Position numbers and translations under genes: made by a program
Notes under the pieces: model-generated
Told to the model about the DNA's origin: nothing
The model's database searches: none
What the model saw: the letters and a program-made list of their open reading frames with translations, nothing else
NCBI GenBank assembly: GCA_026397315.1
Contig: JAPLVC010000004.1
Coordinates: forward strand, 1-64,000
DNA from: Candidatus Aenigmatarchaeota archaeon
Lineage (GTDB): Archaea; Aenigmatarchaeota; Aenigmatarchaeia; QMZP01; QMZT01
DNA: 64,000 nt
Direction of reading: 5' to 3'
Shown here: piece after piece, positions 5,083 to 56,144 of the stretch
Position numbering within the stretch: position 1 is the first letter of the stretch
Layout of the letters: each line of letters starts with the position of its first letter

Positions 5083-6015
5083 CTAAACGGCCTTGCCTAT
5101 TTTTATCCCGTCCTGTCTTACAGCGACGGTCATGAAATCGCGGGCCACAACGGAATTGTGGAAAACCTTTTTCGCCTCAGCTTCGATTTCCCTGAGATCC
5201 GTGTAGCGCCTTGAGAAATGTGTGAGTATGAGATTCTTGACACCAGCTTTCTTCGCGATTTCCGCGGCTTCCTTCGCGCCGGAATGCATCATGTCCTCCT
5301 TCGTCTCGATGAAGGTTGCGTCGTGTATGAGGACGTCCGCGTCTTTCGAGATAGCCAGCACGTTCTGGCAGGGCTCAGTATCGCCGGAATATACGACTTT
5401 TATGCCGGCCTTGCGGACGCCTACATCTTCGAGTTTTATTTTCTTCCCCTTGATCTCGACCTCTCCCTTGTCCTTCAGCGTGCCGACCATCTTGCCCTGC
5501 TTTAGGCCGTAAAGCTTTTCCGCTTTCTCTATGTCCACGTTGACCTTGTCCTTCTCGCGGAAGCAGTACGCCACCGACGGCACGGAATGCCTGGTCGGGA
5601 TGGAGGTTATCTCGAACTCGTCGTTCTCGAGGATTTTCATCTCCATGTTGCCCTCGGAAGGCACGTCTTTGGGAATGACCCTGAACCCCGAGCCCCAGTA
5701 ATCGAGGTCAAGAATGTCGCCTATGAAGCGCTCCGCGTCAGGGCCGTGGATATACAGCGGCCGCGACCGCCCTTCGAGGTTCATGGTATATAACAGGCCT
5801 ATGAGACCGACCCAGTGGTCCGCGTGCCAGTGCGTTATGAATATGTGGTCGAGCTTCATGAACGATATGCCGTTGGCTATTATCATCTGGCGCTGAGTCC
5901 CTTCTCCGCAGTCGAAGAGCATGTTGTGCGTGTCGTAGTGCAGGTAAATCGCGGAGTGGTTTCTCGTTTTTGTCGGCGGCCCGCTGCCCGTCCCGAGGAA
6001 CGTCATGTCAAGCAT
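5083..6015 (-). CDS. rnz: ribonuclease Z (tRNA 3' endonuclease, metallo-beta-lactamase fold)
   Basis: MLDMTFLGTGSG...HxHxDH motif ITHWHADHWVGL; length about 310 aa typical of the short tRNase Z form. Confidence 0.85.
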   Translation of the reverse strand: MLDMTFLGTGSGPPTKTRNHSAIYLHYDTHNMLFDCGEGTQRQMIIANGISFMKLDHIFITHWHADHWVGLIGLLYTMNLEGRSRPLYIHGPDAERFIGDILDLDYWGSGFRVIPKDVPSEGNMEMKILENDEFEITSIPTRHSVPSVAYCFREKDKVNVDIEKAEKLYGLKQGKMVGTLKDKGEVEIKGKKIKLEDVGVRKAGIKVVYSGDTEPCQNVLAISKDADVLIHDATFIETKEDMMHSGAKEAAEIAKKAGVKNLILTHFSRRYTDLREIEAEAKKVFHNSVVARDFMTVAVRQDGIKIGKAV

Positions 6016-32586: not shown

Positions 32587-33177
32587 ATGAACGCCTCACA
32601 GGGAGAGTTCGCCGTGAAGCTTGCGAGAAAAGCGCTGGAAGCCTGGACGGCGAAAGGCGAGATGGTCAAAAGGCCGGACAAGATTAGCAGGGAATTTCTC
32701 GATAAGTCAGGCGTCTTCACCACGCTCCACACGTATCCGGAGCGCGAGCTGCGGGGCTGCATAGGCTTCCCGACGCCGGTCATGCCGTTGGTCGACGCGA
32801 TAATCGAGTCCGCCGTGAGCGCGGCGCAGGACCCGCGCTTCCCCGACTTGGAGAAGGAAGAGCTGAAGAAGATAATAGTCGAGGTGTCAATCCTGACCAA
32901 GCCGCAGAAGATAAACGCCAAAAAACCCGAGGATTACGCGAAGAAAATAATCATAGGCCGCGACGGCCTGATAATACGCAAGGGCTTCCATTCAGGACTT
33001 CTTCTGCCGCAGGTCGCGACCGAATACGGCTGGGACGCCAGAACTTTTCTCGAGCATCTGTGCATGAAAGCCTCGCTGCCATCGGACGCGTGGCTGTCAC
33101 CAGCGACTGAGATATTCAGCTTCCATTCGGAAATATTCAGCGAGAAAAAGCCCAACGGCAAAATAGAAAAGACATGA
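32587..33177 (+). CDS. AMMECR1 domain protein
   Basis: GVFTTLHTY...LRGCIGFPTP motif characteristic of AMMECR1. Confidence 0.85.
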   Translation: MNASQGEFAVKLARKALEAWTAKGEMVKRPDKISREFLDKSGVFTTLHTYPERELRGCIGFPTPVMPLVDAIIESAVSAAQDPRFPDLEKEELKKIIVEVSILTKPQKINAKKPEDYAKKIIIGRDGLIIRKGFHSGLLLPQVATEYGWDARTFLEHLCMKASLPSDAWLSPATEIFSFHSEIFSEKKPNGKIEKT

Positions 33178-33513: not shown

Positions 33514-33594
33514 ACCCTCTAACATCGCTGCCCGAAAAGATTTTATCAGGATTTTTTACATCCATTCATGCCCGCCTTTTTCAAAGAAAATTAG

Positions 33595-33862
33595 CGCCGG
33601 GAACAGGATTCGAACCTGTGTGGGCCTGCGAGCGAAAGACGCGCTTTCCGCGTCGTTTACTTTTCGCCCACCGGATCTCCTGAAAGGATTACTGGGGTTG
33701 CTCCTCATATTCCGCCGATCAGAGTCAAGCCATGAAGTCATCGCAAGCGAATGGCATGCTCACGCATGCCGACTGCCCGCTCTTAAGATCCAGTTTTCAA
33801 GTCCGGCGCGTGCGTAGGCCAGCAAAGTTTCCTTTACCGGTTTACCACTCCGCCATCCCGGC
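33595..33862 (-). tRNA. tRNA-Ser(UGA) candidate (type II: 3-bp D stem, long variable arm) with a roughly 120-nt canonical intron at 37/38 and two further putative insertions; CCA not encoded
   Basis: Minus strand reads 5' GCCGGGA-TG-GCGGAGTGGTAAACCGG...CCGGA-CTTGAA | about 120 nt | A-TCCGG-TGGGCGAAA[~36 nt]GCCCA-CACAGG-TTCGAAT-CCTGT-TCCCGGC-G. The acceptor 7/7 pairs perfectly, the T-arm is canonical GGTTCGAATCC, and the anticodon loop is CTTGAAA. Confidence 0.55.
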
Positions 33863-33885: not shown

Positions 33886-33897
33886 TGCTTTAAATGT
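33886..33897 (-). promoter_or_regulatory. putative archaeal TATA box (TTTAAA) about 30 nt upstream of the tRNA 5' end
   Basis: The minus strand reads ...CATTTAAAGCAAAGC... 28-33 nt upstream of G1 of the tRNA. Confidence 0.3.
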
Positions 33898-34024
33898 TTT
33901 CCGGGAATCCGTGGTCAAAATCCCGAATTCGGGTTACCCTGACGATGTGAATTGAACATATGCGTTTCTGGGCATATTCCTGATCATAATATGTGTTTAA
34001 ATAGTTTACTACGATATAGTAATT

Positions 34025-34597
34025 ATGTTTAAGACTACAGACATGTACTCCGTCTTAAAAACCAGAATTAGAAATCCAATTTGCAGATACAGATACCTAG
34101 ATAATAAACTATATGAACCAAGTTCATTTTATATTAACCTCGGTAAAGGAAGTGTTGGTTTGGATGGTTATCATCCAGATAAAAAAGTGTCAAGGCCGCG
34201 CAGATTCCTTCCCGGCACAGTTGTAGAAGAAGTTCCCGACACGGATACCGTAAAACGACTGAGAGCTTATACTGGTCAAGTCGAAATTCCACTGATGAGA
34301 GAGTTCGTTCCCATGGCCATCAAAGGTTTAGGTAGAATAGGAGAAACTGCTGCTTGTAAATATGGATTTAAAGGCGACGTTGAATTAGATATCAGACACG
34401 ACGCTGGGATTATCCGTAACTCTCCTAACAAAAATTTCTATGGAGAGGTTGAAGCAACAACGGATAAGCTTCAGCTGGTCATGCCCATGATTGATACGGT
34501 TCAGACAATGCAAGAAGCTTTAATTGGTTACAGAGAAGGTGCGGAACAATTTTTAACGGATTTCGTATCCGGAATGAACCGTAAAATTTTTGTATAG
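34025..34597 (+). CDS. hypothetical protein (190 aa) in an AT-rich segment next to the tRNA
   Basis: ORF with AT-rich codon usage; no recognisable motif. Confidence 0.4.
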   Translation: MFKTTDMYSVLKTRIRNPICRYRYLDNKLYEPSSFYINLGKGSVGLDGYHPDKKVSRPRRFLPGTVVEEVPDTDTVKRLRAYTGQVEIPLMREFVPMAIKGLGRIGETAACKYGFKGDVELDIRHDAGIIRNSPNKNFYGEVEATTDKLQLVMPMIDTVQTMQEALIGYREGAEQFLTDFVSGMNRKIFV

Positions 34598-42315: not shown

Positions 42316-45300
42316 GTGAGTCAGATGAATACGAATAAGATGAAGGCATACGTCGGCGCCGTAGGCGCGACGAAACTGACTGCCATAATCGTTATGGCTT
42401 GTATTCTGGGGGTTTTCGCTGTCTCGATGGCTAGCGTTTTTGCCGAATCCAATGCTCAAATCTACACAACGGATATCGAAGGTATAGCGAAATTAGATTT
42501 CACCCCTGATTCAATAGTATATATACACGGCACGAGTTTCTCACCTAACTCGTCAATAAGCATCACCCTCACCAGGCCAGGCCAATATTCATATTCAGAA
42601 TCCTGTGGTCCAGAATATTGCGATATATCGAACATTTTTGGCGGTCCACCTGAAATAGAAACAGGTTTCGACGCACCACAGACCTCGAATGAAGAGGGAG
42701 ATTTCGTTTATAGATATGACTTAGACGGTATAGTCGGAGAATACACAGTCACAGTCACCGATGGCGCAGATGTAAAGACTTTTGTTTTCACCGACGCGAG
42801 AAATATTAACTGGGCCAAATTGAACGGAACAAGTACTGTAACAGTTCTACCCAGCACTAGCATCACAGCTTCTGTGAATGTTACAACAACCAGTACAGAT
42901 CATGACTGGAAATGCACAAAATATAAAATAGAGGGTGGAAGTAACATCACTGTAAATCACGGAAACCATTATGGACAAGGTACATACATAGAATCATTTT
43001 CTATAACAGCACCTGCGACACCTGGCATCTATGATGTCAGTTTTTGGGCCTTTGATGATAATGATTGCACAAGTGGCCAAAGTATTGAAAAGAAATTGGT
43101 AGATGGCATAACAGTCACATCACCTGCTATTTGCGGTAATGGTGTAAAAGAAGGCTCTGAAGGATGCGACGATGGTAACACAGCAAATGGCGATGGTTGT
43201 AATTCCGGTTGTCAAGTAGAAACTGGATGGGCATGCACAGGGACACAGCCGAGTGTTTGCACTCCTGCCTGTGGTAATGGTATTATAACTTCACCTGAAA
43301 CCTGCGACGATGGCAACACGGCCAGTAGTGATGGATGTAGCAATGTTTGTCAGACAGAGAATGGCTGGACGTGCACAGGCACTCCAAGCGTTTGCACTGT
43401 AGCAAACCAGAATCTTACGCAGTCCTGCGGCATAGACATGGCGCTTGTGATAGACGTTTCCGGCAGCATAGACAGCACAGAACTTGCACAGATGAAGACG
43501 GCTCTTAATAGTTTTGTTGACGCATTCCTTCCGAACACACCGACGAAAATAGCTGTCATCAAGTTCGATACGACAGCAACAGTTATTCACGCATACTCAA
43601 ATGATGCCACATCCCTGAAGAACGCCATTAATGGCGCAAGTGGCGGTGGATACACCAACTGGCAGGATGCTCTTCTTGACACCCATTCATTGTATGACCA
43701 CAGGATTGACAAGCCTGATTTGTACGTTTTCGCTTCTGACGGAGAACCGAACAGATACGGCGACCCGGCAGTAAGTGCCACGACACCTGTAGCTGTCGCA
43801 CACGCTGTTACTGAAGCGAACCACATAAAACTTCACGGCATCAGAATAATAACGCTTGGAATAGGAACAGGAGGCAGCTCATCTCTTATAAACAACCTCA
43901 AGGCGATTTCAAGCAATGACGCTTATTACGACACGAATTTCGAAACTATTGCAGATGACCTCGCCGACCTTGCCAACGATTTGTGCGGCGGGACAATAAA
44001 CGTCCAGAAATTCGTTGACGGCAACACCGCTGCCGACTGGCAGTTCGCTGTCACTGGCGGAACTTCGAACCCACCGTCAGGTTACACAGGAACTGACGGC
44101 TTTATCACTTTTGACATAGACACCAGCGGCGGAAATGCGACCGTCAGCGTGACGGAAACAGTACAGAACGGTAATAGTTTCACGAGCGCCCACTGTTATA
44201 GTGATTCGCAGCACCAGAACGAAGTCGGAACACCGGGACAGGGAACAGTGGTCAGCATACAAGTCGGTGCGAACGACGCGATTTACTGCGAGTTCAACAA
44301 CCACCACAACGTTTGCTCTGAATACTCGACAGAAGGCAGCTGCAACGCGCAGACTGGCCTTTGTACATGGTGCCCGCAGTGTAATCAGCATCATCAATGG
44401 AGTAGCCTGCTTGGCGGAGACCAGTGCGTCCCTGCAGGTGCATGCCCGAACCCCTACACATGTGAATACGGGGAATGCGGCGCCGAATGCGAAGATGACG
44501 AAAGACCTTGCACGGCATACTGCGACCAGAGTCTGAATTATTATGGGGCAGGAATTTGCGGAAATGATTGCACCTGCAATTATCCATCACCAACTCCCTG
44601 CGACGATGGTGACAAATGCACGACAGACGGATGTAGTAATGCTAATGGATGCGCACCACATGAACCAGTCGACTGCAACGACAATAATATATGCACGATA
44701 GATTCATGCGACCCATCAGTCGGCTGTTCTAACGTAAGGATACCTACCGAAACTTCTTGCACCGACCAGATAGACAACGATTGCGACGGCAAGACAGACT
44801 GCGCTGACACCGATTGTGCGGGAACTCCTACATGCTTCTACCAGAGACCGTGCGATGCCCCAACCGATATCTGTCAATGGAACAAAGTTCTTCCGCTTGG
44901 CTCAGAGAACTGCTGCGGCTGCAATCTCGGTTTCAATACCTATTGGCCGCTTAACACTCAAGCAAGCGCAGAATGCACTTTCACTGCTGATGCAAACATG
45001 AAACAGAAACTTTACATCTCGGTGAACAACGATGTGATAAGATGCACGCTTAACGGAAACGTAATTTTCGAAAACCAACAGCACGAAGGCTGTGCGGAAA
45101 TAAATCCTAGAAACGGTTATACCGTTCCTATTAGTCCGACTGCCGGTGTAAACACAATAATTTGCGAAATAAATGACAGAGGTTCGATGACGCACTTCGA
45201 TGCATGCGTTGTTGAAAAACAATGTTTTAACAACGCTGATTGTGACAATGGTTTATACTGCGACGGCATTGAATATTGCGATCAAAACAATCAGTGTCAG

Positions 45301-48300
45301 CCAGGAACTCCTGCTGACTGTTCAGACCAATTTTTCTGCACCGTTAATGAAAGATGTGAAGAAGGAACGAGTACATATGAATGTTTATCTGACCCACTTG
45401 ACTGCTCCGGAAACGACATCCAAGGAATAGCGACTTGCACGAACGACCCTGACAACTACGCATGGACTTTTGATTTCAGAAGCCTCTTCACAAGCATCTG
45501 CGATGACGATAACAATGTTTGTACGAGTGGTAGTGAAGACATATCACACACATGCGCAGATGCTAATGCGACCGACGGCGGACCGGTTATTCTGCCTCAG
45601 GGAGGCGTGAGCACATGCACGGCTGAGTGCGATAGCTATGGAACGGAATGCCAGCCGTACCTTAACCCAGCGAATGATTATTGTTATTACAATGGACAAT
45701 GTAACACGAATCCGACAGTATGCCAGTGTGCTTATTCAGGCGTGCCATGCCCGGACCCTGGTTACATAGATGAAAATAGGATCTGCCACTATGGCGAGAG
45801 ATCCTGCACCGCAAACGGATGTGTTTATCGATACAACGACCCAATGGGCTGCAAGGACATCTGCGATCCGGTTTTGGGACCGCAGGACACGACAGGCCCG
45901 ATCACCGACATTCTTAAGATAACGCCGAACCCGACTTGCGGTAAGATAAGCTTCAACGCGACCATAACCGAGAACTGCACCAACATCTCGGACGGACTAT
46001 ATGCGATAGATATTGGGATAGATTTCTGCCCGTTTCCGGGTTACGGAGGCTATCAGGTTCTTCCGCTTGACGACAGCTCATATGATGGAGACAAAATGCA
46101 GGAGCTTGTAGGCAAGATTAACCTGATGCTGACGGGCTACAACGACGGACGCCACACCCTTTACGTCAGGGGCAAGAACACTGACGGCACATGGGGCAAC
46201 TGCGATTCATACGGCTTCGCCTTGGACACTCTGGCGCCCGCGACAGAATCGCAGAGCATAACGCCCAACATGGCGTGCGGCAGCAATCCTTACTTCGTAG
46301 CGAGAATTTGCGACCCATTCAACGAGTCAGGCATGTGCGGCGCGGAATACTACATAGATGATTTCACACAGGGAAACGGCGAAGGAATACCGATGTACCC
46401 GGTCGACGGACAGTGGAACGACGCATGCGAGTACGTTTACGCGTGGGTTGACATAAGCCAGGTTTCTGAAGGGACGCATTACATAAAGGCTCACGGCATT
46501 GACTGCACAGGATGCAACTGGGGCAAAATTGAGAACTTCGCTCCGGTATGGTTCATAAAAGACACTGTAGCTCCGGTATCGACAAAGACTGTCGGAACGC
46601 CGAAGATACAGTGCAGCAGCGACGTGGGAGAGTGCTGGTTCATAACCCAGGGCACTGAGATAACCATGAACGCCCAGGACTCTGATCCGGGCTTCGGCGA
46701 ATACTCAGGAAACCTGAACATATCTTCGCACTACCCGTACTACCAGGGATACGTTAACATTTATTACAGACAGAGATGGAAGGAGAACTACGATTCAGAA
46801 GAGTGGGGAACGTGGAGCAGCTGGACTCTTTACACGGGTCCGTTCAAGTTCACGGAAGACTCACTCCACGAGATAGAGTACTACTCTACGGACGCCTGTG
46901 CCAACAACGAAACATCGAAATTCGAGCTTGACATAGTCGACACTCAGCCACCCGAGACCGCAAAAGACGTCTTGGGCCCGAAAGTCGCAGGCGACGGCAA
47001 CCCGATACACTACTACATAACAGATGACAGCACGATAAAACTTACATGCACAGACCCGCAGCCTCACCCGGTAGACCAGGTCACTCTTAACTGGGCGGTT
47101 TACTACAGTGAGAACTGCACGAACCCGACATGGAGCAGCGAGCCGATAATGAGCGGCCATGAGCAGGGCGGCTACAAGGAGATAACGAACCTTCAGGACT
47201 CGTGCCACAAGATTGTTTACAGCTGCGTCGACGCGCTCAACAACGTTGAAACAGAGCACGTCGAGATAGACGCGGTCGACAACAAGTATCCGCTTGTAGA
47301 AAAGGCGGTAGACGAGCCGAAGGTGCCATACACACTTCCCATCCAATACATGGGCACGGAACCGTTTGATGTGGCAGACCAAGCATGGTATGTCAACCAG
47401 AACACGCTGATAACGCTGACATGCACCGACCAGCTGCCTCATCCGGTCGACGATGTCAAGATATACTACAAATATTATGTGGACGGCGTGCAGCATCAGA
47501 ACTGGACGGAATACACCGCACCATTCACATACAACGAGGACACGTACCACAATCTCTACTACTACTGCGTTGACGCCCTTGGAAACAAGGGACCGACGCA
47601 CGTCGAATTGGACGTGGTTGACACGCAGGCTCCGACCTCGGTGAAAACGCTGACAGGCGCGAAGCACGCATGCACACCTGAAGAGGCGAGCATGTACGGC
47701 ATAGCGGACTGCTCGTTCATAACGCACGACACAAAAGTCGAGCTGTCCTGCACCGACGGCAACCCGCACCCGGTTGATGACGTCGAGCTTCACTACAAGA
47801 TTGAGTGGAAGCTGAACTGGGAAGGCAGCTGGCAGACCCTTAGGGACCAGACAGTAGAAGACAATTACACGAGCTTCTACTACGAGGATCTTCCGGTAGA
47901 ATACCAGGATTCGTTCCACAAGCTCACTTGGTACTGCGTAGATGCGCTTGACAACACGGAGAGCCAGCACGTAGAATTGGACATTGTTGATACACAGGCG
48001 CCGCAGACCGTGAAGACGGTCTCGATGCCGAAATACGCAGGCCCGATAGGCAGCGGCATAGACTACTACATAACCAAGGATACTGTAATCAATCTGACAT
48101 GCACAGACGGCAACCCGCACCCGGTTGACCATGTAACCCTTAACTGGAAAATTTACTGGAGCAGCGAATGCGGACCAAACGCTGTCTGGAGTATAGATCC
48201 GATAGCAAGCGGTGCAGAGGGAGACGGCAACGTTCTGATAACCAACCTCGGCGATTCATGCCACAAGCTTGTCTACAACTGCGTCGACCAGCTCGGCAAC

Positions 48301-51300
48301 GCTGAAAACACACAGGTCGAGATAGACGCGGTCGACAACCAGGCGCCAATCGGAACAAAGAACGTTGGCCAGCCTAACGTGCCCTGCGTCGGCGAAGTAG
48401 AATGCACGCAGTTCGACTACTGGGTTCGTGACCACGTCACGACGGTAACGCTTGACTGCACCGACGCACAGCCGCATCCGATCGGCGGAGAGCTGATGTG
48501 CTACAAGATGGGCTACGACGTCCCAGCGACGCCAGACCTTACACAGCAATATTGCACGCAGTTCGGCGGCAAAATGGAAGCTGACGGATACTGCTGCGTA
48601 GACGTCGATGGCAGCAAGAACTATGTATTCAATTTCACGGAAGATTCCGTGCACACACTGGGTTACTACTGCAAGGACGCATTCGGAAACGCCAACGGCC
48701 TTGACACGGAGACGTTCAAGGTAGACTCGATCGCTCCTAACACAACAAAGACTTATGAGGGACCGTTCTACACCGATGGCAAGTCAGACTGGATAGACAC
48801 CGTATCAACGGTAAAACTTACTGCAACTGATGGCGGAGAGATATGCCACGTAGACGGCACGACCACATACTACGCGGTCACACAGGTGAACGAATCGTTC
48901 TGCTACGATCCGGCAGCGAACTGCCAGCAGATGCACACATACGAGCAAGGCGTCTGGAACACATACACTAGCGCATTCCCGGTCGCTGAGTCATGCCACC
49001 TGATAGAGTTCTACAGCGTGGACGTGCTCGGCAACAAGGAACCGATAAAGCACCAATGCGTGTTCTCAGACCACACAGCTCCAGCCACAAACAAGACTTA
49101 CGGAACACCGCTAGTGGAAGCTGTCACAGGAGGTTATCCGAAGTGGATAACTTCAGCGACACCGATAACCCTTACAGCTGAGGACCAGCTGCCGCACCCG
49201 TCCGGACTGAAAGAAACAAAGTACAGGGTGACGCTTGTGAACGACCTGAACTGCTACGAAGCGTGCAATGCAGAAAGCATCGGCGCATGGAACACCTACA
49301 CGGTGCCGTTCACAATCACGGAAGACTCCTGCCACATGATAGAGTACTTCAGCATAGACAACGTCCAGAAGACCGAGCCGGTCAAGAAGCAGTGCATATT
49401 CGTGGACAACAAGGCGCCGATATCGAACAAGACGTTCGACGGCTTCAACGTCCCGTGCAGCGAACTGACTTGCAGGACTGAAGGCAGCTGTGATTACTAC
49501 ATAAACCAGAACACGAAGATAATACTCAGCTGCACCGACCAGCTCCCGCACCCGGTCGACGACGTCAAGATATACTACAAATACACTGTTGACGATCAGC
49601 CACACGAATCATACTCGGACTGGACGCTATACACTGCTCCAATACAATATAATGAAGATTCGAAACACACTCTCGAATGGTACTGCGAGGACGCCCTTGG
49701 AAACAGGGAGCAGACTCACACCCAGATAGAGAGAGTAGACACAACACCTCCGACGACAGTCAAGACGTTCAGCAAACCGACATACCCTGAAGATTTGAAC
49801 CAGAACGGAACAATAGACAACGAGCAGGAACAGAATTACTGGGTCACTTCGGACACTGCGATAACGCTGACCACGACTGACGGCGGACCAATATGCGCAG
49901 CAGGCTCTTCAAAGCTTTACTACACGGTAAAGTGGGACAAGAACTGCGACGGCGACTTCAATGATTTCGGCGAAGTCGTGATAAATAATCAACACGTGCA
50001 TGTGAACGCAACCACGTGCGAACTCAAGAAGACCTTGTATCTGGAAGGCGAGTGCCTGCATGAGATAAGATGGCATGCAGTCGACGCTCTTGGAAACGTT
50101 GAAACAGAACACGTGCAGCAGCACAAGGTCGACAACAGTCCTCCGCACATACTGATACTTAAGCCGGTCGACGGCTGGTATTCGAAGGGCGAGGACATAC
50201 CCGCGATAGCTGAAGTCAAGGATCTCAACAGTGCGGACAGCCCGTGCGAGCAGTTCAGGAACAACTGCAACGAGCTCGGCGAGAACTGTGCGGTAGGCAT
50301 CGAGGACGGAGCGCAGTGCTACGCCTTCCTTGTGAACCTTGAGTTCCTTAACATGAACCCGATGGAAATATTCGACCTGAGCGACGTGACGAGATATAAT
50401 CTCGAAACGAACGGAACGCTCCTTTACAATGCGGCAGCGCAGGAATGCCAGGGCTATGCAGTAATCCCCGAGAACAGCGACGTGCAGAGCGGCATCCACA
50501 TATTCGTCGTCGAAGCTGAAGACAGCCTCGGCAACTACGCCAACAGCATCGACGAGATAAGGCTTGCGATAGACCAGGCATGCGGCGGCGGCTGCTGGAG
50601 CAGCGACCCGTACGACCTGTGCGAGCCACAGTGCGTTGAGGACGTCCTTCAGGACATAATAACGACATGGAACCTGCCGAAGATAGGCATAGACACGAAC
50701 GCACCGGAAGTTGTGATAACGGCACCGGTTGACACAGAGGGCTATTACGTTGACAAGGGACAGCTTGCTGTCTCGGCTGACGTGACCGAGTCCGGCATAA
50801 CGTGCGCGATAACTTCAGGCACGCCGTGCTACGTGAAAATCGACGGGACATCAATCGGAACTCTGTACTATGATAATAACGAGAAGGAATGCACTGGTAC
50901 GCTTGTGGTGCCCGAGGATGTGCCTAACGGCATGGAAGTTCCATTGACAGTCGAAGTCTCCGACAACTGCGGCAACATCGGAAAGGGAGTGGTTTATGTC
51001 ACGGTTGACACCATGAACCCGGCACCGGTGATACTTGCAGCGGAGGACGTCGAGAACCCGCCATACGACACTGATGGCAACTACGACCTTGTATGGACTG
51101 GCGGAACCGACACGAACTTCAAACAATTCGATATAGTAATAGATGGCACGACCTACTACGACGTGACGCAGCCTTACGAAGGCCTTTCGGCCGAGGGCAG
51201 GCACACGTACAAGGTCATCGCTACCGACGAAGTCGACAAGATTGCAACTTCCAACGAAGTGGTAGTCTGGGTCGACACTGTAGCACCTGGACTGGACGTG

Positions 51301-52425
51301 ACGGGAAGCACACCCAACATGGGATTCTTCCTGTTCACATACACCGCGATTGATCCAAACCCGAGCTCCGGCATGCAGCCGCTTCAGGTGATTGGCGGTT
51401 TCGGAGGCATCTGCTCGAACACGCTTCCGGCAGGCTTCTGCATGGTCGCAGGCACGAATGATGCAATACTTAAAGCATGCGACAACGCGGGCAACTGCGT
51501 CAGCCACTCGACTGAAGGCACTGAAACCGACGTGACCCCGCCTTCGATAATCTACTCGAGCCCGAGCGGCAAGATAGAGCAGAACGAAGAGCTTAAACTG
51601 GAAGTAACGACAAACGAGCCGGCATACTGCTATTACGGCACGGAAGACAACTGGGCCACGATGACACAGATGAGCACATCTGTAAACATAGACCATTCGA
51701 TTGACCTTCCAAGCCCGCTTGCAGACGGCCTTTATGTCTACCACGTCCAGTGCAGGGACTTCGCAGGCAACATAATGGACAGCTCGAAAACGATAGTGTT
51801 CTACGTGAACACTGACGGCCAGTACTGCTACAGCACGGACATGACTGCAGGATGGAACACGTTCTTCCTGCCACAGCTGATACTGGACGACATCAACTTC
51901 AACTGCGGCTATGAGCCGTACGAGACAGCTGATGTACTGGGCTCGCTTGAAGGCAAGTACAGCATAGTGTGGTACTACGATGAGAGCGAAGGGTGGCTGT
52001 TCTACACGCCACAATATCCGGAGTTCTCGACACTGACGCAGTTCAGCGACCAGACAAGCAATCCATACTACATAAAGATGACCGGGCCGGCAAAGCTCGG
52101 ACTCCAGTGCGAGGATGAATGTGTCAGCAACTACTGCGGTGATGGCCAAGTCAACGGCGACGAGCAGTGCGAACTTCCTGACGATAATAACAACGAATAC
52201 TGCACCCAGACGACGCAGCAATGCTACCAAGATACTCACAAGACGCAATACAGGGACGCATACGGCTACTGTGATGAATCGTGCGGCTGCATGGAAGATC
52301 AGGAGTGGGGATCGCCCCAGTGCTTAAAGGACAGCTGCGGAGCGACGTGTGGCGGCGACAGCGACTGCTCGCAAGGACAATACTGCAACACAGAAATTTG
52401 CCAGTGTATGAACATACCTGATTAG
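42316..52425 (+). CDS. giant secreted/surface protein (3369 aa). It has an N-terminal signal/anchor helix, two Cys-rich repeats (CGNG..EGCDDGN..DGC), a VWA domain with MIDAS motif, a Cys/Asp-rich block, about 12 tandem modules of roughly 130 aa, and a Cys-rich C-terminus
   Basis: A single uninterrupted ORF preceded by GGTGAGGTGA. VWA motif is LVIDVSGSID...TNWQDAL. The repeated module consensus is VDTQAP..VKT...C...I..DT.I.L.CTDG.PHPVD.V...YK......Y..PF.Y.EDS.H.L.YYCVDALGN.E..HVELD. Confidence 0.85.
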   Translation: MSQMNTNKMKAYVGAVGATKLTAIIVMACILGVFAVSMASVFAESNAQIYTTDIEGIAKLDFTPDSIVYIHGTSFSPNSSISITLTRPGQYSYSESCGPEYCDISNIFGGPPEIETGFDAPQTSNEEGDFVYRYDLDGIVGEYTVTVTDGADVKTFVFTDARNINWAKLNGTSTVTVLPSTSITASVNVTTTSTDHDWKCTKYKIEGGSNITVNHGNHYGQGTYIESFSITAPATPGIYDVSFWAFDDNDCTSGQSIEKKLVDGITVTSPAICGNGVKEGSEGCDDGNTANGDGCNSGCQVETGWACTGTQPSVCTPACGNGIITSPETCDDGNTASSDGCSNVCQTENGWTCTGTPSVCTVANQNLTQSCGIDMALVIDVSGSIDSTELAQMKTALNSFVDAFLPNTPTKIAVIKFDTTATVIHAYSNDATSLKNAINGASGGGYTNWQDALLDTHSLYDHRIDKPDLYVFASDGEPNRYGDPAVSATTPVAVAHAVTEANHIKLHGIRIITLGIGTGGSSSLINNLKAISSNDAYYDTNFETIADDLADLANDLCGGTINVQKFVDGNTAADWQFAVTGGTSNPPSGYTGTDGFITFDIDTSGGNATVSVTETVQNGNSFTSAHCYSDSQHQNEVGTPGQGTVVSIQVGANDAIYCEFNNHHNVCSEYSTEGSCNAQTGLCTWCPQCNQHHQWSSLLGGDQCVPAGACPNPYTCEYGECGAECEDDERPCTAYCDQSLNYYGAGICGNDCTCNYPSPTPCDDGDKCTTDGCSNANGCAPHEPVDCNDNNICTIDSCDPSVGCSNVRIPTETSCTDQIDNDCDGKTDCADTDCAGTPTCFYQRPCDAPTDICQWNKVLPLGSENCCGCNLGFNTYWPLNTQASAECTFTADANMKQKLYISVNNDVIRCTLNGNVIFENQQHEGCAEINPRNGYTVPISPTAGVNTIICEINDRGSMTHFDACVVEKQCFNNADCDNGLYCDGIEYCDQNNQCQPGTPADCSDQFFCTVNERCEEGTSTYECLSDPLDCSGNDIQGIATCTNDPDNYAWTFDFRSLFTSICDDDNNVCTSGSEDISHTCADANATDGGPVILPQGGVSTCTAECDSYGTECQPYLNPANDYCYYNGQCNTNPTVCQCAYSGVPCPDPGYIDENRICHYGERSCTANGCVYRYNDPMGCKDICDPVLGPQDTTGPITDILKITPNPTCGKISFNATITENCTNISDGLYAIDIGIDFCPFPGYGGYQVLPLDDSSYDGDKMQELVGKINLMLTGYNDGRHTLYVRGKNTDGTWGNCDSYGFALDTLAPATESQSITPNMACGSNPYFVARICDPFNESGMCGAEYYIDDFTQGNGEGIPMYPVDGQWNDACEYVYAWVDISQVSEGTHYIKAHGIDCTGCNWGKIENFAPVWFIKDTVAPVSTKTVGTPKIQCSSDVGECWFITQGTEITMNAQDSDPGFGEYSGNLNISSHYPYYQGYVNIYYRQRWKENYDSEEWGTWSSWTLYTGPFKFTEDSLHEIEYYSTDACANNETSKFELDIVDTQPPETAKDVLGPKVAGDGNPIHYYITDDSTIKLTCTDPQPHPVDQVTLNWAVYYSENCTNPTWSSEPIMSGHEQGGYKEITNLQDSCHKIVYSCVDALNNVETEHVEIDAVDNKYPLVEKAVDEPKVPYTLPIQYMGTEPFDVADQAWYVNQNTLITLTCTDQLPHPVDDVKIYYKYYVDGVQHQNWTEYTAPFTYNEDTYHNLYYYCVDALGNKGPTHVELDVVDTQAPTSVKTLTGAKHACTPEEASMYGIADCSFITHDTKVELSCTDGNPHPVDDVELHYKIEWKLNWEGSWQTLRDQTVEDNYTSFYYEDLPVEYQDSFHKLTWYCVDALDNTESQHVELDIVDTQAPQTVKTVSMPKYAGPIGSGIDYYITKDTVINLTCTDGNPHPVDHVTLNWKIYWSSECGPNAVWSIDPIASGAEGDGNVLITNLGDSCHKLVYNCVDQLGNAENTQVEIDAVDNQAPIGTKNVGQPNVPCVGEVECTQFDYWVRDHVTTVTLDCTDAQPHPIGGELMCYKMGYDVPATPDLTQQYCTQFGGKMEADGYCCVDVDGSKNYVFNFTEDSVHTLGYYCKDAFGNANGLDTETFKVDSIAPNTTKTYEGPFYTDGKSDWIDTVSTVKLTATDGGEICHVDGTTTYYAVTQVNESFCYDPAANCQQMHTYEQGVWNTYTSAFPVAESCHLIEFYSVDVLGNKEPIKHQCVFSDHTAPATNKTYGTPLVEAVTGGYPKWITSATPITLTAEDQLPHPSGLKETKYRVTLVNDLNCYEACNAESIGAWNTYTVPFTITEDSCHMIEYFSIDNVQKTEPVKKQCIFVDNKAPISNKTFDGFNVPCSELTCRTEGSCDYYINQNTKIILSCTDQLPHPVDDVKIYYKYTVDDQPHESYSDWTLYTAPIQYNEDSKHTLEWYCEDALGNREQTHTQIERVDTTPPTTVKTFSKPTYPEDLNQNGTIDNEQEQNYWVTSDTAITLTTTDGGPICAAGSSKLYYTVKWDKNCDGDFNDFGEVVINNQHVHVNATTCELKKTLYLEGECLHEIRWHAVDALGNVETEHVQQHKVDNSPPHILILKPVDGWYSKGEDIPAIAEVKDLNSADSPCEQFRNNCNELGENCAVGIEDGAQCYAFLVNLEFLNMNPMEIFDLSDVTRYNLETNGTLLYNAAAQECQGYAVIPENSDVQSGIHIFVVEAEDSLGNYANSIDEIRLAIDQACGGGCWSSDPYDLCEPQCVEDVLQDIITTWNLPKIGIDTNAPEVVITAPVDTEGYYVDKGQLAVSADVTESGITCAITSGTPCYVKIDGTSIGTLYYDNNEKECTGTLVVPEDVPNGMEVPLTVEVSDNCGNIGKGVVYVTVDTMNPAPVILAAEDVENPPYDTDGNYDLVWTGGTDTNFKQFDIVIDGTTYYDVTQPYEGLSAEGRHTYKVIATDEVDKIATSNEVVVWVDTVAPGLDVTGSTPNMGFFLFTYTAIDPNPSSGMQPLQVIGGFGGICSNTLPAGFCMVAGTNDAILKACDNAGNCVSHSTEGTETDVTPPSIIYSSPSGKIEQNEELKLEVTTNEPAYCYYGTEDNWATMTQMSTSVNIDHSIDLPSPLADGLYVYHVQCRDFAGNIMDSSKTIVFYVNTDGQYCYSTDMTAGWNTFFLPQLILDDINFNCGYEPYETADVLGSLEGKYSIVWYYDESEGWLFYTPQYPEFSTLTQFSDQTSNPYYIKMTGPAKLGLQCEDECVSNYCGDGQVNGDEQCELPDDNNNEYCTQTTQQCYQDTHKTQYRDAYGYCDESCGCMEDQEWGSPQCLKDSCGATCGGDSDCSQGQYCNTEICQCMNIPD
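46228..50160 (+). repeat. in-frame tandem array of about 12 divergent modules of roughly 330-390 nt each within the giant gene (protein-level repeats)
   Basis: Module starts recognisable at about 46228, 46561, 46940, 47275, 47614, 47983, 48328, 48721, 49066, 49404, 49738 and 50130 (V-D-[TN]-x-[AP]-P motif). Confidence 0.6.
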
Positions 52426-55451: not shown

Positions 55452-56144
55452 TTACTCCACTTCCACGCCGGGCATGATCCACTTCCCGCCCAATCGCTTT
55501 CGATTCTCCAGCAGCATCTTGCCGGATATGGCGATTTTGGAGTATTTCGGGTTGAGGCCCAGCAGCCTCGCGAACGAGAGGAGTTCCGACGGCGCCCGCA
55601 GGTCGTACGGGTCGACAGCGCCTGACGTAAGAATGAAGGGAGGCTTGTATTTCCTGACCAGCTTCGCGTTCTCCAGCATGCTCGAGAAAACGTCCGCTCG
55701 CGTCTTCCTGTTAGATATAAGCACGTTCCTCATGTTGAATTCGATAGCTACGTTGTTCTTTTTCGCGAGCTTGGCCATCACAAGATCGATGCCGCCATCG
55801 TTCCTGCCCATTTCCGGGTGCGCTAAAACGTCGATTTCAGGCGTTTCACAAGCGACTCTGTTGACCTCTATGTTGCCTCCGTGGACGAGAATCACTTCGA
55901 CTGCCTTCCGCGCCTTCCTGGCGAGCTTCTGCATCTGGTCGGGGTGGCTGGTCTCGATCTTGAGGCCGAAAGACACGTCTAAGGGGGATTTGGAAGGCAT
56001 GGAGGCGAACTGGTCGCGAAGGGCGGAAACGTCTTCGAGCGACTTGCTTACGAAGCATACGCCTTTCCATCCCATGCGTTCGAGAAGCGTGAGCATGCCG
56101 TTCACGTCGACCTCGGCGTGCACATGATATTCGTAGAAACTCAT
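55452..56144 (-). CDS. rnp3: RNase P protein component 3 (Rpp30, TIM-barrel)
   Basis: MSFYEYHVHAE start; GIDLVMAKLAKKNNVAIEFNMRNVLISN...AKLVRKYKPPFILTSGA aligns to archaeal Rpp30. Confidence 0.7.
   Translation of the reverse strand: MSFYEYHVHAEVDVNGMLTLLERMGWKGVCFVSKSLEDVSALRDQFASMPSKSPLDVSFGLKIETSHPDQMQKLARKARKAVEVILVHGGNIEVNRVACETPEIDVLAHPEMGRNDGGIDLVMAKLAKKNNVAIEFNMRNVLISNRKTRADVFSSMLENAKLVRKYKPPFILTSGAVDPYDLRAPSELLSFARLLGLNPKYSKIAISGKMLLENRKRLGGKWIMPGVEVE

Follow-up and report, generated by a model that had tools for sequence, protein, structure and literature searches.

The segment between positions 33862 and 33595 on the minus strand of the window (the whole 64,000-nt stretch of DNA analyzed in this study) is, as read from its sequence, a genuine gene for tRNA-Ser(UGA) of an Aenigmarchaeota (DPANN) archaeon that is interrupted by three introns of the protein-spliced type. 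With its introns the gene spans 268 nt, and in silico splicing reduces it to 82 nt. We consider it highly probable that the explanation holds as a whole, i.e., that this is a functional tRNA-Ser(UGA) gene composed of four exons and three bulge-helix-bulge (BHB) introns, that it is matured by the splicing pathway proposed below, and that the core of one intron plays a role of its own. This is an essential tRNA gene that is missed or miscalled by ARAGORN and the Rfam tRNA model, and such misses make DPANN MAGs appear short of tRNAs. The finding extends multi-intron tRNAs to the Aenigmarchaeota.

Structure, surroundings, and detection of the tRNA-Ser(UGA) gene

On the minus strand, tRNA nucleotide G1 lies at 33862 and the discriminator G73 at 33595, and four exons of 20, 16, 15, and 31 nt are separated by introns in the D-loop (31 nt), at position 37/38 (119 nt), and in the variable loop (36 nt). 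Exon 1 (33843 to 33862) holds the 5′ strand of the acceptor stem, U8 and G9, the 5′ strand of the D stem, and the D-loop up to ...GGUA, and it is identical or nearly so in nine orthologs. After gene nucleotide 20, intron 1 (33812 to 33842) interrupts the D-loop at about position 21/22. Exon 2 (33796 to 33811) contributes the 3′ strand of the D stem (CGC), G26, the 5′ strand of the anticodon stem, and the loop sequence CUUGAA with the anticodon UGA, and it is followed at the canonical position 37/38 by intron 2 (33677 to 33795). Exon 3 (33662 to 33676) runs from A38 through the 3′ strand of the anticodon stem and U44 to the 5′ strand of the variable stem (GGGC) and its loop GAAA. Intron 3 (33626 to 33661) sits at the variable loop/stem junction, where one ortholog provides an intron-less allele, and exon 4 (33595 to 33625) supplies the 3′ strand of the variable stem (GCCC), an A, C48, the T arm, the 3′ strand of the acceptor stem, and G73. 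CCA is not encoded at the 3′ end of the gene.

Removal of 33842 to 33812, 33795 to 33677, and 33661 to 33626 yielded a sequence of 82 nt that ARAGORN called as tRNA-Ser(tga) without introns and drew as a clean class-II cloverleaf, in agreement with the amino acid and anticodon assigned in an earlier sequence-only reading of this DNA. All of the exonic elements listed in that reading are present on the minus strand: the acceptor GCCGGGA/UCCCGGC followed by G73, the 3-bp D stem GCG/CGC, the anticodon stem CCGGA/UCCGG with the loop CUUGAAA, the variable arm reading UGGGCGAAA...GCCCA, and the T arm reading ACAGG-UUCGAAU-CCUGU. The spliced cloverleaf also contains G18G19, a U54-U60 T-loop, and a variable stem of 4 bp with GAAA as its loop, and a G15:C48 pair is possible in it. 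The long variable arm, G73, the UGA anticodon, the 3-bp D stem, and the G18G19 loop are the features of a class-II archaeal tRNA-Ser. The same reading had postulated three insertions, and these are now supported by intron-less alleles, by BHB motifs, and by the ARAGORN call on the spliced sequence. Two of its insert sizes (about 120 and 36 nt) agree with the 119 and 36 nt found here, whereas the insert of about 28 nt that it placed between the D arm and the anticodon stem proved to be one of 31 nt inside the D-loop.

Elements resembling transcription signals flank the gene. A TATA-like box, ATTTAAAG (33888 to 33895, minus strand), is located 26 to 33 nt upstream of tRNA nucleotide 1, and a TTTAAA-type box occurs at an equal upstream distance in every ortholog. 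Judged by the architecture of archaeal promoters, this box would serve as the promoter. An oligo-T tract, TTTTCTTT (33583 to 33590, minus strand), lies 5 nt past G73, and T-runs are found downstream of the gene in all orthologs; the tract is likely a transcription terminator. The folding energy of the 268-nt precursor is −115.6 kcal/mol (z = −4.7 versus shuffled sequences).

The neighborhood of the gene is ordinary, with genes for an MFS transporter, a DHH phosphoesterase, an ATP-cone protein, MatE, and UbiA flanking it. An AMMECR1-family protein encoded at 32587 to 33177 is 100% identical to a MAG protein filed at NCBI under "Candidatus Aenigmarchaeota archaeon," and its next relatives are also from Aenigmarchaeota. 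Three tRNA maturation genes, all on the minus strand, occur in the window and encode a dihydrouridine synthase (Dus; 477 to 1409), tRNase Z (5083 to 6015), and RNase P p30 (55452 to 56144). EndA, RtcB, and L7Ae were absent from the 60 (of 65 called) window ORFs scanned against Pfam. Directly upstream of the tRNA promoter, a 190-aa ORF (34025 to 34597, plus strand) had no Pfam or PHROG match. A low-GC stretch coincides with this ORF and with 33900 to 34100 (33 to 44% versus about 51%). Neither of the syntenic contigs L001 and L002 contains the ORF, which may therefore be an insertion beside the tRNA gene. By far the largest ORF of the window is a single one of 3369 aa at 42316 to 52425 (plus strand).

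We found that ARAGORN, in both default and intron modes, reported no tRNA in the whole 64-kb window and that Rfam at gathering thresholds gave no match to the gene; at permissive thresholds, Rfam recovered the T arm fragment alone at 14 bits, together with a chance miRNA match. When the intron mode of ARAGORN was applied to the orthologs described below, a tRNA-Lys(ctt) with a 189-nt intron was called in L001, a tRNA-Thr(tgt) with a 166-nt intron in L129, and, in L075, a tRNA-Ser(tga) with an intron of 147 nt wrongly placed after position 38. The window gene and those of L002, L003, L127, and L130 received no call in this mode. Finders that allow for one intron only may mislabel or miss the tRNA-Ser(UGA) gene in these MAGs.

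Intron boundaries, bulge-helix-bulge motifs, and intron turnover

Orthologs were obtained from three sources. Contigs with AMMECR1 proteins 78 to 92% identical to that of the window gave L001, L002, and L003/L004; an exact-protein look-up for the neighboring gene had returned no match, and homologues were used to reach these related contigs. All four of them keep both the synteny and the interrupted gene. A scan of a genome collection with the 3′ end pattern yielded L075, from a 1.1-Mb Aenigmarchaeota contig, and a 22-mer of the long intron, used to scan metagenomes, yielded L127, L128, L129, and L130. Together with the window gene, the set comprises nine distinct orthologs, one of which (L128) is cut by the contig end. 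Orthologs are contained in the JGI sediment samples Ga0315274, Ga0315275, Ga0315282, Ga0315286, and Ga0315295.

Natural intron-less alleles occur for both noncanonical sites. The D-loop insertion is absent from L075 and L129, the D arm of which reads GCG-GAG(C)GG(U/C)AA-CGC-G, i.e., the window sequence minus the 31 nt of intron 1. Likewise, the variable-arm intron is missing from L130, where the sequence UGGGCGAAAGCCCG is identical to the window exons as joined by removal of the 36 nt of intron 3. Since these alleles read as joined exons, they fix the boundaries of the D-loop and variable-arm introns. For intron 2, the same 119 nt were delimited by the BHB scan and, independently, by ARAGORN, which placed an intron(37,119) after position 37 once the two noncanonical inserts had been removed. 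All eight complete orthologs, the window gene included, splice in silico to an 82-nt tRNA-Ser(UGA), and ARAGORN indicated that intron removal restores a canonical cloverleaf in the window gene and in the seven others, as is characteristic of BHB introns. Among the exons, 8 of 82 positions vary across the orthologs, with covariation at 3:70 (C-G to U-A) and 49:65 (A-U to G-C). The interiors of the insertions diverge freely, in contrast to the near-invariant exons.

We then examined the junctions for BHB motifs, a check proposed in the sequence-only reading, using a geometry in which each strand consists of a 4-nt central-helix strand followed by a 3-nt bulge in which cleavage follows the second base. 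At the cuts defined by comparison, all three introns show a 4/4 central helix and two 3-nt bulges. For intron 1, the central helix is GUGG/CUAC and the bulges are UA|A and GC|A; its inner part consists of an A.C apposition (A-U in L003, L127, L128, and L130) and a CCGG/CUGG helix with a small hairpin as its cap. Of the intron-bearing orthologs, 7/7 have a 4/4 central helix, with pairing kept while the intron strand varies among CUAC, CUAU, CCAC, and CUGC, and a cut pair shifted by 1 nt yields an identical product. For intron 2, the anticodon stem forms the outer helix (6 to 7 bp), the central helix is CUUG/CAGG, and the bulges are AA|A and AG|A; a 4/4 central helix is present in 9/9 orthologs (intron strand CAGG, CGGG, or CAAG). 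For intron 3, an outer GG/CC and a central GCGA/UCGC are combined with the bulges AA|A and AG|G. All four pairs of this central helix form in the window clade and L127 and three of the four in L075; L128 has the helix in a different register, and that of L129 is poor. Upon shuffling of the introns, a 4/4 central helix arose at the fixed cut pair in 5%, 3.9%, and 1% of cases for the D-loop, 37/38, and variable-arm introns, respectively (about 2 × 10−5 jointly).

The helices that flank these motifs are short or displaced. In the D-loop BHB, no outer helix stacks directly, since G13 and A14 offset the D stem; an inner helix is nearly lacking at 37/38; and the flanks of the variable-arm BHB are of 2 bp only. 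Thus, all three BHBs are relaxed forms that need an EndA of broad specificity, as has been reported for relaxed BHBs (PMC5829648). When used alone, a strict BHB scan returned numerous rival candidates in the GC-rich variable arm and overlooked the D-loop BHB owing to the interruptions in its flanking helices. Comparison with the intron-less alleles was needed.

In principle, the 37/38 insertion might be the only intron, with the D-loop and variable-arm inserts retained as expansion segments of the mature RNA. Such a reading could draw on the compact hairpins into which both insertions fold and on the tolerance of class-II tRNAs for long variable arms, but it has to face orthologs in which one of the two insertions is cleanly missing and the exons read as joined, BHBs that fall exactly at the boundaries (7/7 for the D-loop and most of eight orthologs for the variable arm), and interiors that are free to diverge beside constrained exons. 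Furthermore, from established knowledge of tRNA structure, a 31-nt insert between A21 and A22 would break the contacts between D-loop and T-loop, and we regard retention as very unlikely. The extent of the variable-arm intron is a separate matter, since a nested and stricter BHB, GCGA-AAAG-(UA|A)-ACG...CGU-CUUU-(CG|C)-UCGC (33633 to 33657, minus strand), would excise 25 nt (33657 to 33633). With 4 outer, 4 central, and 3 inner pairs, it is the top-scoring BHB of the variable-arm region in both scans, and the remainder could still form GG-GCGA-(AA|A)...UCGC-(AG|G)-CC, leading to the same final product by a second, 11-nt excision. Sequential intron removal of this kind has been described in archaeal tRNAs (PMC8450103). 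If the 25-nt excision were the single step, however, a 26-nt variable region would result, which the ARAGORN drawing shows as unpaired and devoid of a variable stem, and this conflicts with the intron-less allele of L130. On the nested route, the 11-nt second intron would leave the 4-nt GUAC between the strands of the central helix, which permits at most one pair with a 2-nt loop. The window clade is identical at the nested BHB and the interiors of the other orthologs are unrelated, so that conservation is uninformative here. The nested motif may be due to chance or may represent the first step of a two-step excision; overall, we judge a 25-nt intron to be improbable and retain the 36-nt intron.

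Two further readings concern the gene itself. The view taken here is limited to 64 kb of the genome, and a window-specific low-GC ORF adjoins the gene; both would fit a pseudogene in decay or a tRNA-like relic left by a mobile element, the real tRNA-Ser(UGA) gene lying elsewhere. Against such decay stand exons that are strongly constrained and carry compensatory changes across nine orthologs, a promoter box and a terminator that are conserved, a stable synteny, and the fact that every intron-site variant restores the same 82-nt tRNA, which renders this reading extremely unlikely. The ARAGORN intron-mode calls on L001, L129, and L075 would in turn be in line with a simpler, single-intron tRNA of another identity, an outcome that the sequence-only reading had named as its refutation. 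These calls are mutually inconsistent (Lys, Thr, and Ser) for nearly identical genes, they ignore the BHB sites and the intron-less alleles, and the search was empty for the window and four of the orthologs. Taking the BHB sites, the contradictory calls, and the uniform 82-nt splice products together, we ruled out a single-intron tRNA of other identity, the chance of which is practically nil.

Some relatives of the window gene carry even more introns. In L127 (249 to 644, minus strand), the gene is 396 nt long and has four introns, in the D-loop (39 nt), at 37/38 (133 nt), in the variable loop (67 nt), and in the T-loop (75 nt). By its sequence, L127 thus appears to exceed the published maximum of three introns per archaeal tRNA gene, which is given in reviews and in the tRNAscan-SE 2.0 paper (PMC4033280, PMC8450103). 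The extra intron, present in L127 and L130 (211 to 493), is bounded by a strict BHB at 59/60, ACAGG-UUCG-(AA|U)...(C/U)GAA-(AA|U or UU|U)-CCUGU. In the truncated L128 (1 to 370), the start of the same fourth intron is visible before the contig end, and L128 is probably a four-intron gene as well. For the substrate limits of EndA, these relatives provide a testable lead.

Which of the four intron sites are occupied differs from one close relative to another. The short 95-nt intron at 37/38 is common to L075 and L130, yet these two differ at the D-loop, variable, and T-loop sites, indicating precise and recent intron gains or losses. The nine orthologs thus amount to a natural experiment, offering exact before/after alleles for the gain and loss of BHB introns. 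Five contigs of Bathyarchaeia and Iainarchaeum (L102, L073, L028, L104, and L124) carry tRNA genes that share this 3′ end and, judging by their length of 136 to 167 nt, may contain one or two introns; L102 and L073 show an apparent D-loop insertion, and L124 shows an AT-rich insertion in the 37/38 region.

The conserved core of the 37/38 intron

Intron 2 contains a 60-nt core (33686 to 33745, minus strand) that is about as constant as the exons, with 48/60 columns invariant and a mean identity of 96% over nine orthologs, and every other intron part turns over. It is adjoined by a variable hairpin (33743 to 33780, minus strand) between the invariant flanks ...nGA and (G/A)AUGA, which forms a closed stem-loop in 9/9 orthologs despite unrelated sequences and lengths of 15 to 46 nt. 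A covariance model of the core, searched against the window and 96 loci (nearly all archaeal), matched solely this intron in this clade, and no other copy of the core was found in 0.75 Mb of archaeal tRNA-Ser loci plus the window.

Within the core, RNAalifold predicted the stem of a C′/D′-like K-loop hairpin (33698 to 33728, minus strand), UUG(A)CUCU-GA-UCGGCGGAAUAU-GA-GGAG-CAA, the boxes of which are a D′-like CUGA and a C′-like AUGAGGA. The arrangement CUGA-N10-AUGAkGA allows the C-G, U.k, G.A, and A.G pairing plus the stem extension of an internal D′/C′ K-loop. Across the two boxes, variation is confined to the base that faces the U of CUGA (G, U, or A), at the 3b.3n position. In K-turns, this position is non-Watson-Crick. 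The K-loop stem itself is invariant across the orthologs and shows no compensatory changes, and it is the sequence pattern that fits a K-loop. From this pattern, the hairpin is predicted to bind L7Ae. The core is probably a selected structured element that putatively binds L7Ae, and its exon-like conservation is a testable lead toward a possible intron-borne functional RNA.

The sequence-only reading had raised the possibility that the long intron hosts a C/D-box sRNA or a homing element. The former idea is met halfway by the C′/D′-like K-loop motif, but we rejected a canonical C/D sRNA: CUGA occurs only once, the C′-like box has no terminal D box downstream of it, the spacer is 15 nt rather than 12 nt, and the C-like GCGAUGA becomes GCAAUGA in L127. 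The would-be guide sequences of the intron pair with each other. No Rfam sRNA family matched intron 2 at gathering or permissive thresholds. When the core was searched for antisense matches to the mature tRNA and to the precursor, the BHB helix alone was returned and nothing else conserved of at least 7 pairs, and no methylation target was found within the tRNA itself. As for a homing element, 119 nt is too short for a homing endonuclease gene.

Several other candidates were discarded. An H/ACA element composed of an upper stem and a K-loop has no ACA/ANA box after the lower stem and no pocket geometry. A small hairpin, GCrAUG-AnUU-CAUGGC, is doubtful, as its outer pair, an A.C in L003 and L129, overlaps the closing helix of the variable hairpin. 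Conservation of the core by protein coding (ORFs 33556 to 33741, minus strand, and 33620 to 33817, plus strand) was dismissed, for the orthologs differ by nontriplet indels. Group I and group II introns had no Rfam match at gathering thresholds or at E-values up to 10, and the introns measure 31 to 119 nt. The GA flanks of the variable hairpin may form a classical K-turn, but no 3-nt bulge and no convincing C stem were seen there.

Among the roles that could be assigned to the core, L7Ae binding combined with a function as a scaffold for precursor folding, or as an atypical small RNP after excision, is the most likely one, and it constitutes the weakest step of the explanation. We propose only tentatively, and with less than even confidence, that intron 2 goes beyond a spacer, acting either in excised and circularized form as a circularly permuted, atypical C/D-type RNP or as an L7Ae-dependent scaffold that presents several BHBs, in the same clade in which four intron sites are gained and lost and four-intron genes occur.

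Proposed maturation and comparison with known systems

The pathway that we envisage is modeled on the established archaeal route of transcription, trimming, EndA cleavage, RtcB ligation, and CCA addition. A precursor of about 270 nt would be transcribed from the TATA box to the T-run, and its ends would be trimmed by RNase P and tRNase Z. Archaeal EndA would then cut after the second base of each 3-nt bulge, at six sites in total, and an RtcB-type ligase would join the four exons, with the introns probably being circularized. Addition of CCA would complete a class-II tRNA of 82 nt (85 nt with CCA) that reads UCA/UCG. The gene structure, the exact boundaries with their BHB geometry, the conservation among orthologs, the promoter-like box, and the T-tract are shown by the sequences; on the established route, the gene would be expressed and spliced, and circular introns would probably be formed.

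The layout of the gene is known in archaea, and what is new here is the Aenigmarchaeota lineage, for which no prior description of multi-intron tRNA genes was found in the literature searched. Such genes had been thought, in the sequence-only reading, to be confined to a few archaeal lineages; they are in fact documented in Thermoproteales, other Crenarchaeota, Korarchaeum, Methanopyrus kandleri, N. equitans, ARMAN, and other DPANN archaea (PMC4033280, PMC5829648). D-loop introns with relaxed BHBs, introns at 59/60, and multi-intron tRNAs are all documented substrates of archaeal EndA (PMC5829648, PMC3239211, PMC4033280, PMC8450103), and L3-loop EndAs have been reported in several DPANN lineages (PMC5829648).

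With respect to the intron core, the closest parallel is the intron of the euryarchaeal pre-tRNA-Trp that carries a box C/D guide RNA (d'Orval et al. 2001, cited in PMC7994747). Both are long 37/38 introns with GA-type K-turn/K-loop boxes, and the CUGA and AUGAnGA boxes of intron 2 fold exactly like a C′/D′ K-loop. In contrast to the pre-tRNA-Trp guide, intron 2 has no terminal D box, its C-like box and CUGA are 15 nt rather than 12 nt apart, its would-be guides self-pair, and complementarity of at least 7 pairs to the mature tRNA was not found besides the BHB helix.

The pre-tRNA-Glu(UUC) of M. kandleri likewise combines a relaxed D-loop intron near A21 (of the HBh′ form there) with a canonical 37/38 intron (PMC5829648). 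It is a different tRNA from a different phylum that was tested biochemically, whereas the gene described here is known from sequence and has a third intron in the variable loop. Pre-tRNAs of ARMAN-2 (Micrarchaeota, DPANN) contain introns at 59/60 and 53/54 that are cut by an epsilon2 EndA (PMC3239211). The 59/60 T-loop site of this archaeon, which also belongs to DPANN, is that of the fourth intron in L127 and L130, whereas the window copy is without a T-loop intron.

In Thermoproteales and other Crenarchaeota, multi-intron genes of similar overall design have been described (Sugahara et al. 2007/2008; for reviews, PMC4033280 and PMC8450103). As in the present gene, several BHB introns occupy canonical and noncanonical sites, with up to three introns per gene, the BHBs are relaxed, and the genes are missed by ordinary finders. 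Unlike those genes, the one reported here comes from an Aenigmarchaeota/DPANN MAG of about 50% GC, with related contigs that are all environmental metagenome assemblies; it includes one unusually long intron of 119 nt with an exon-like conserved core, and its orthologs reach four introns.
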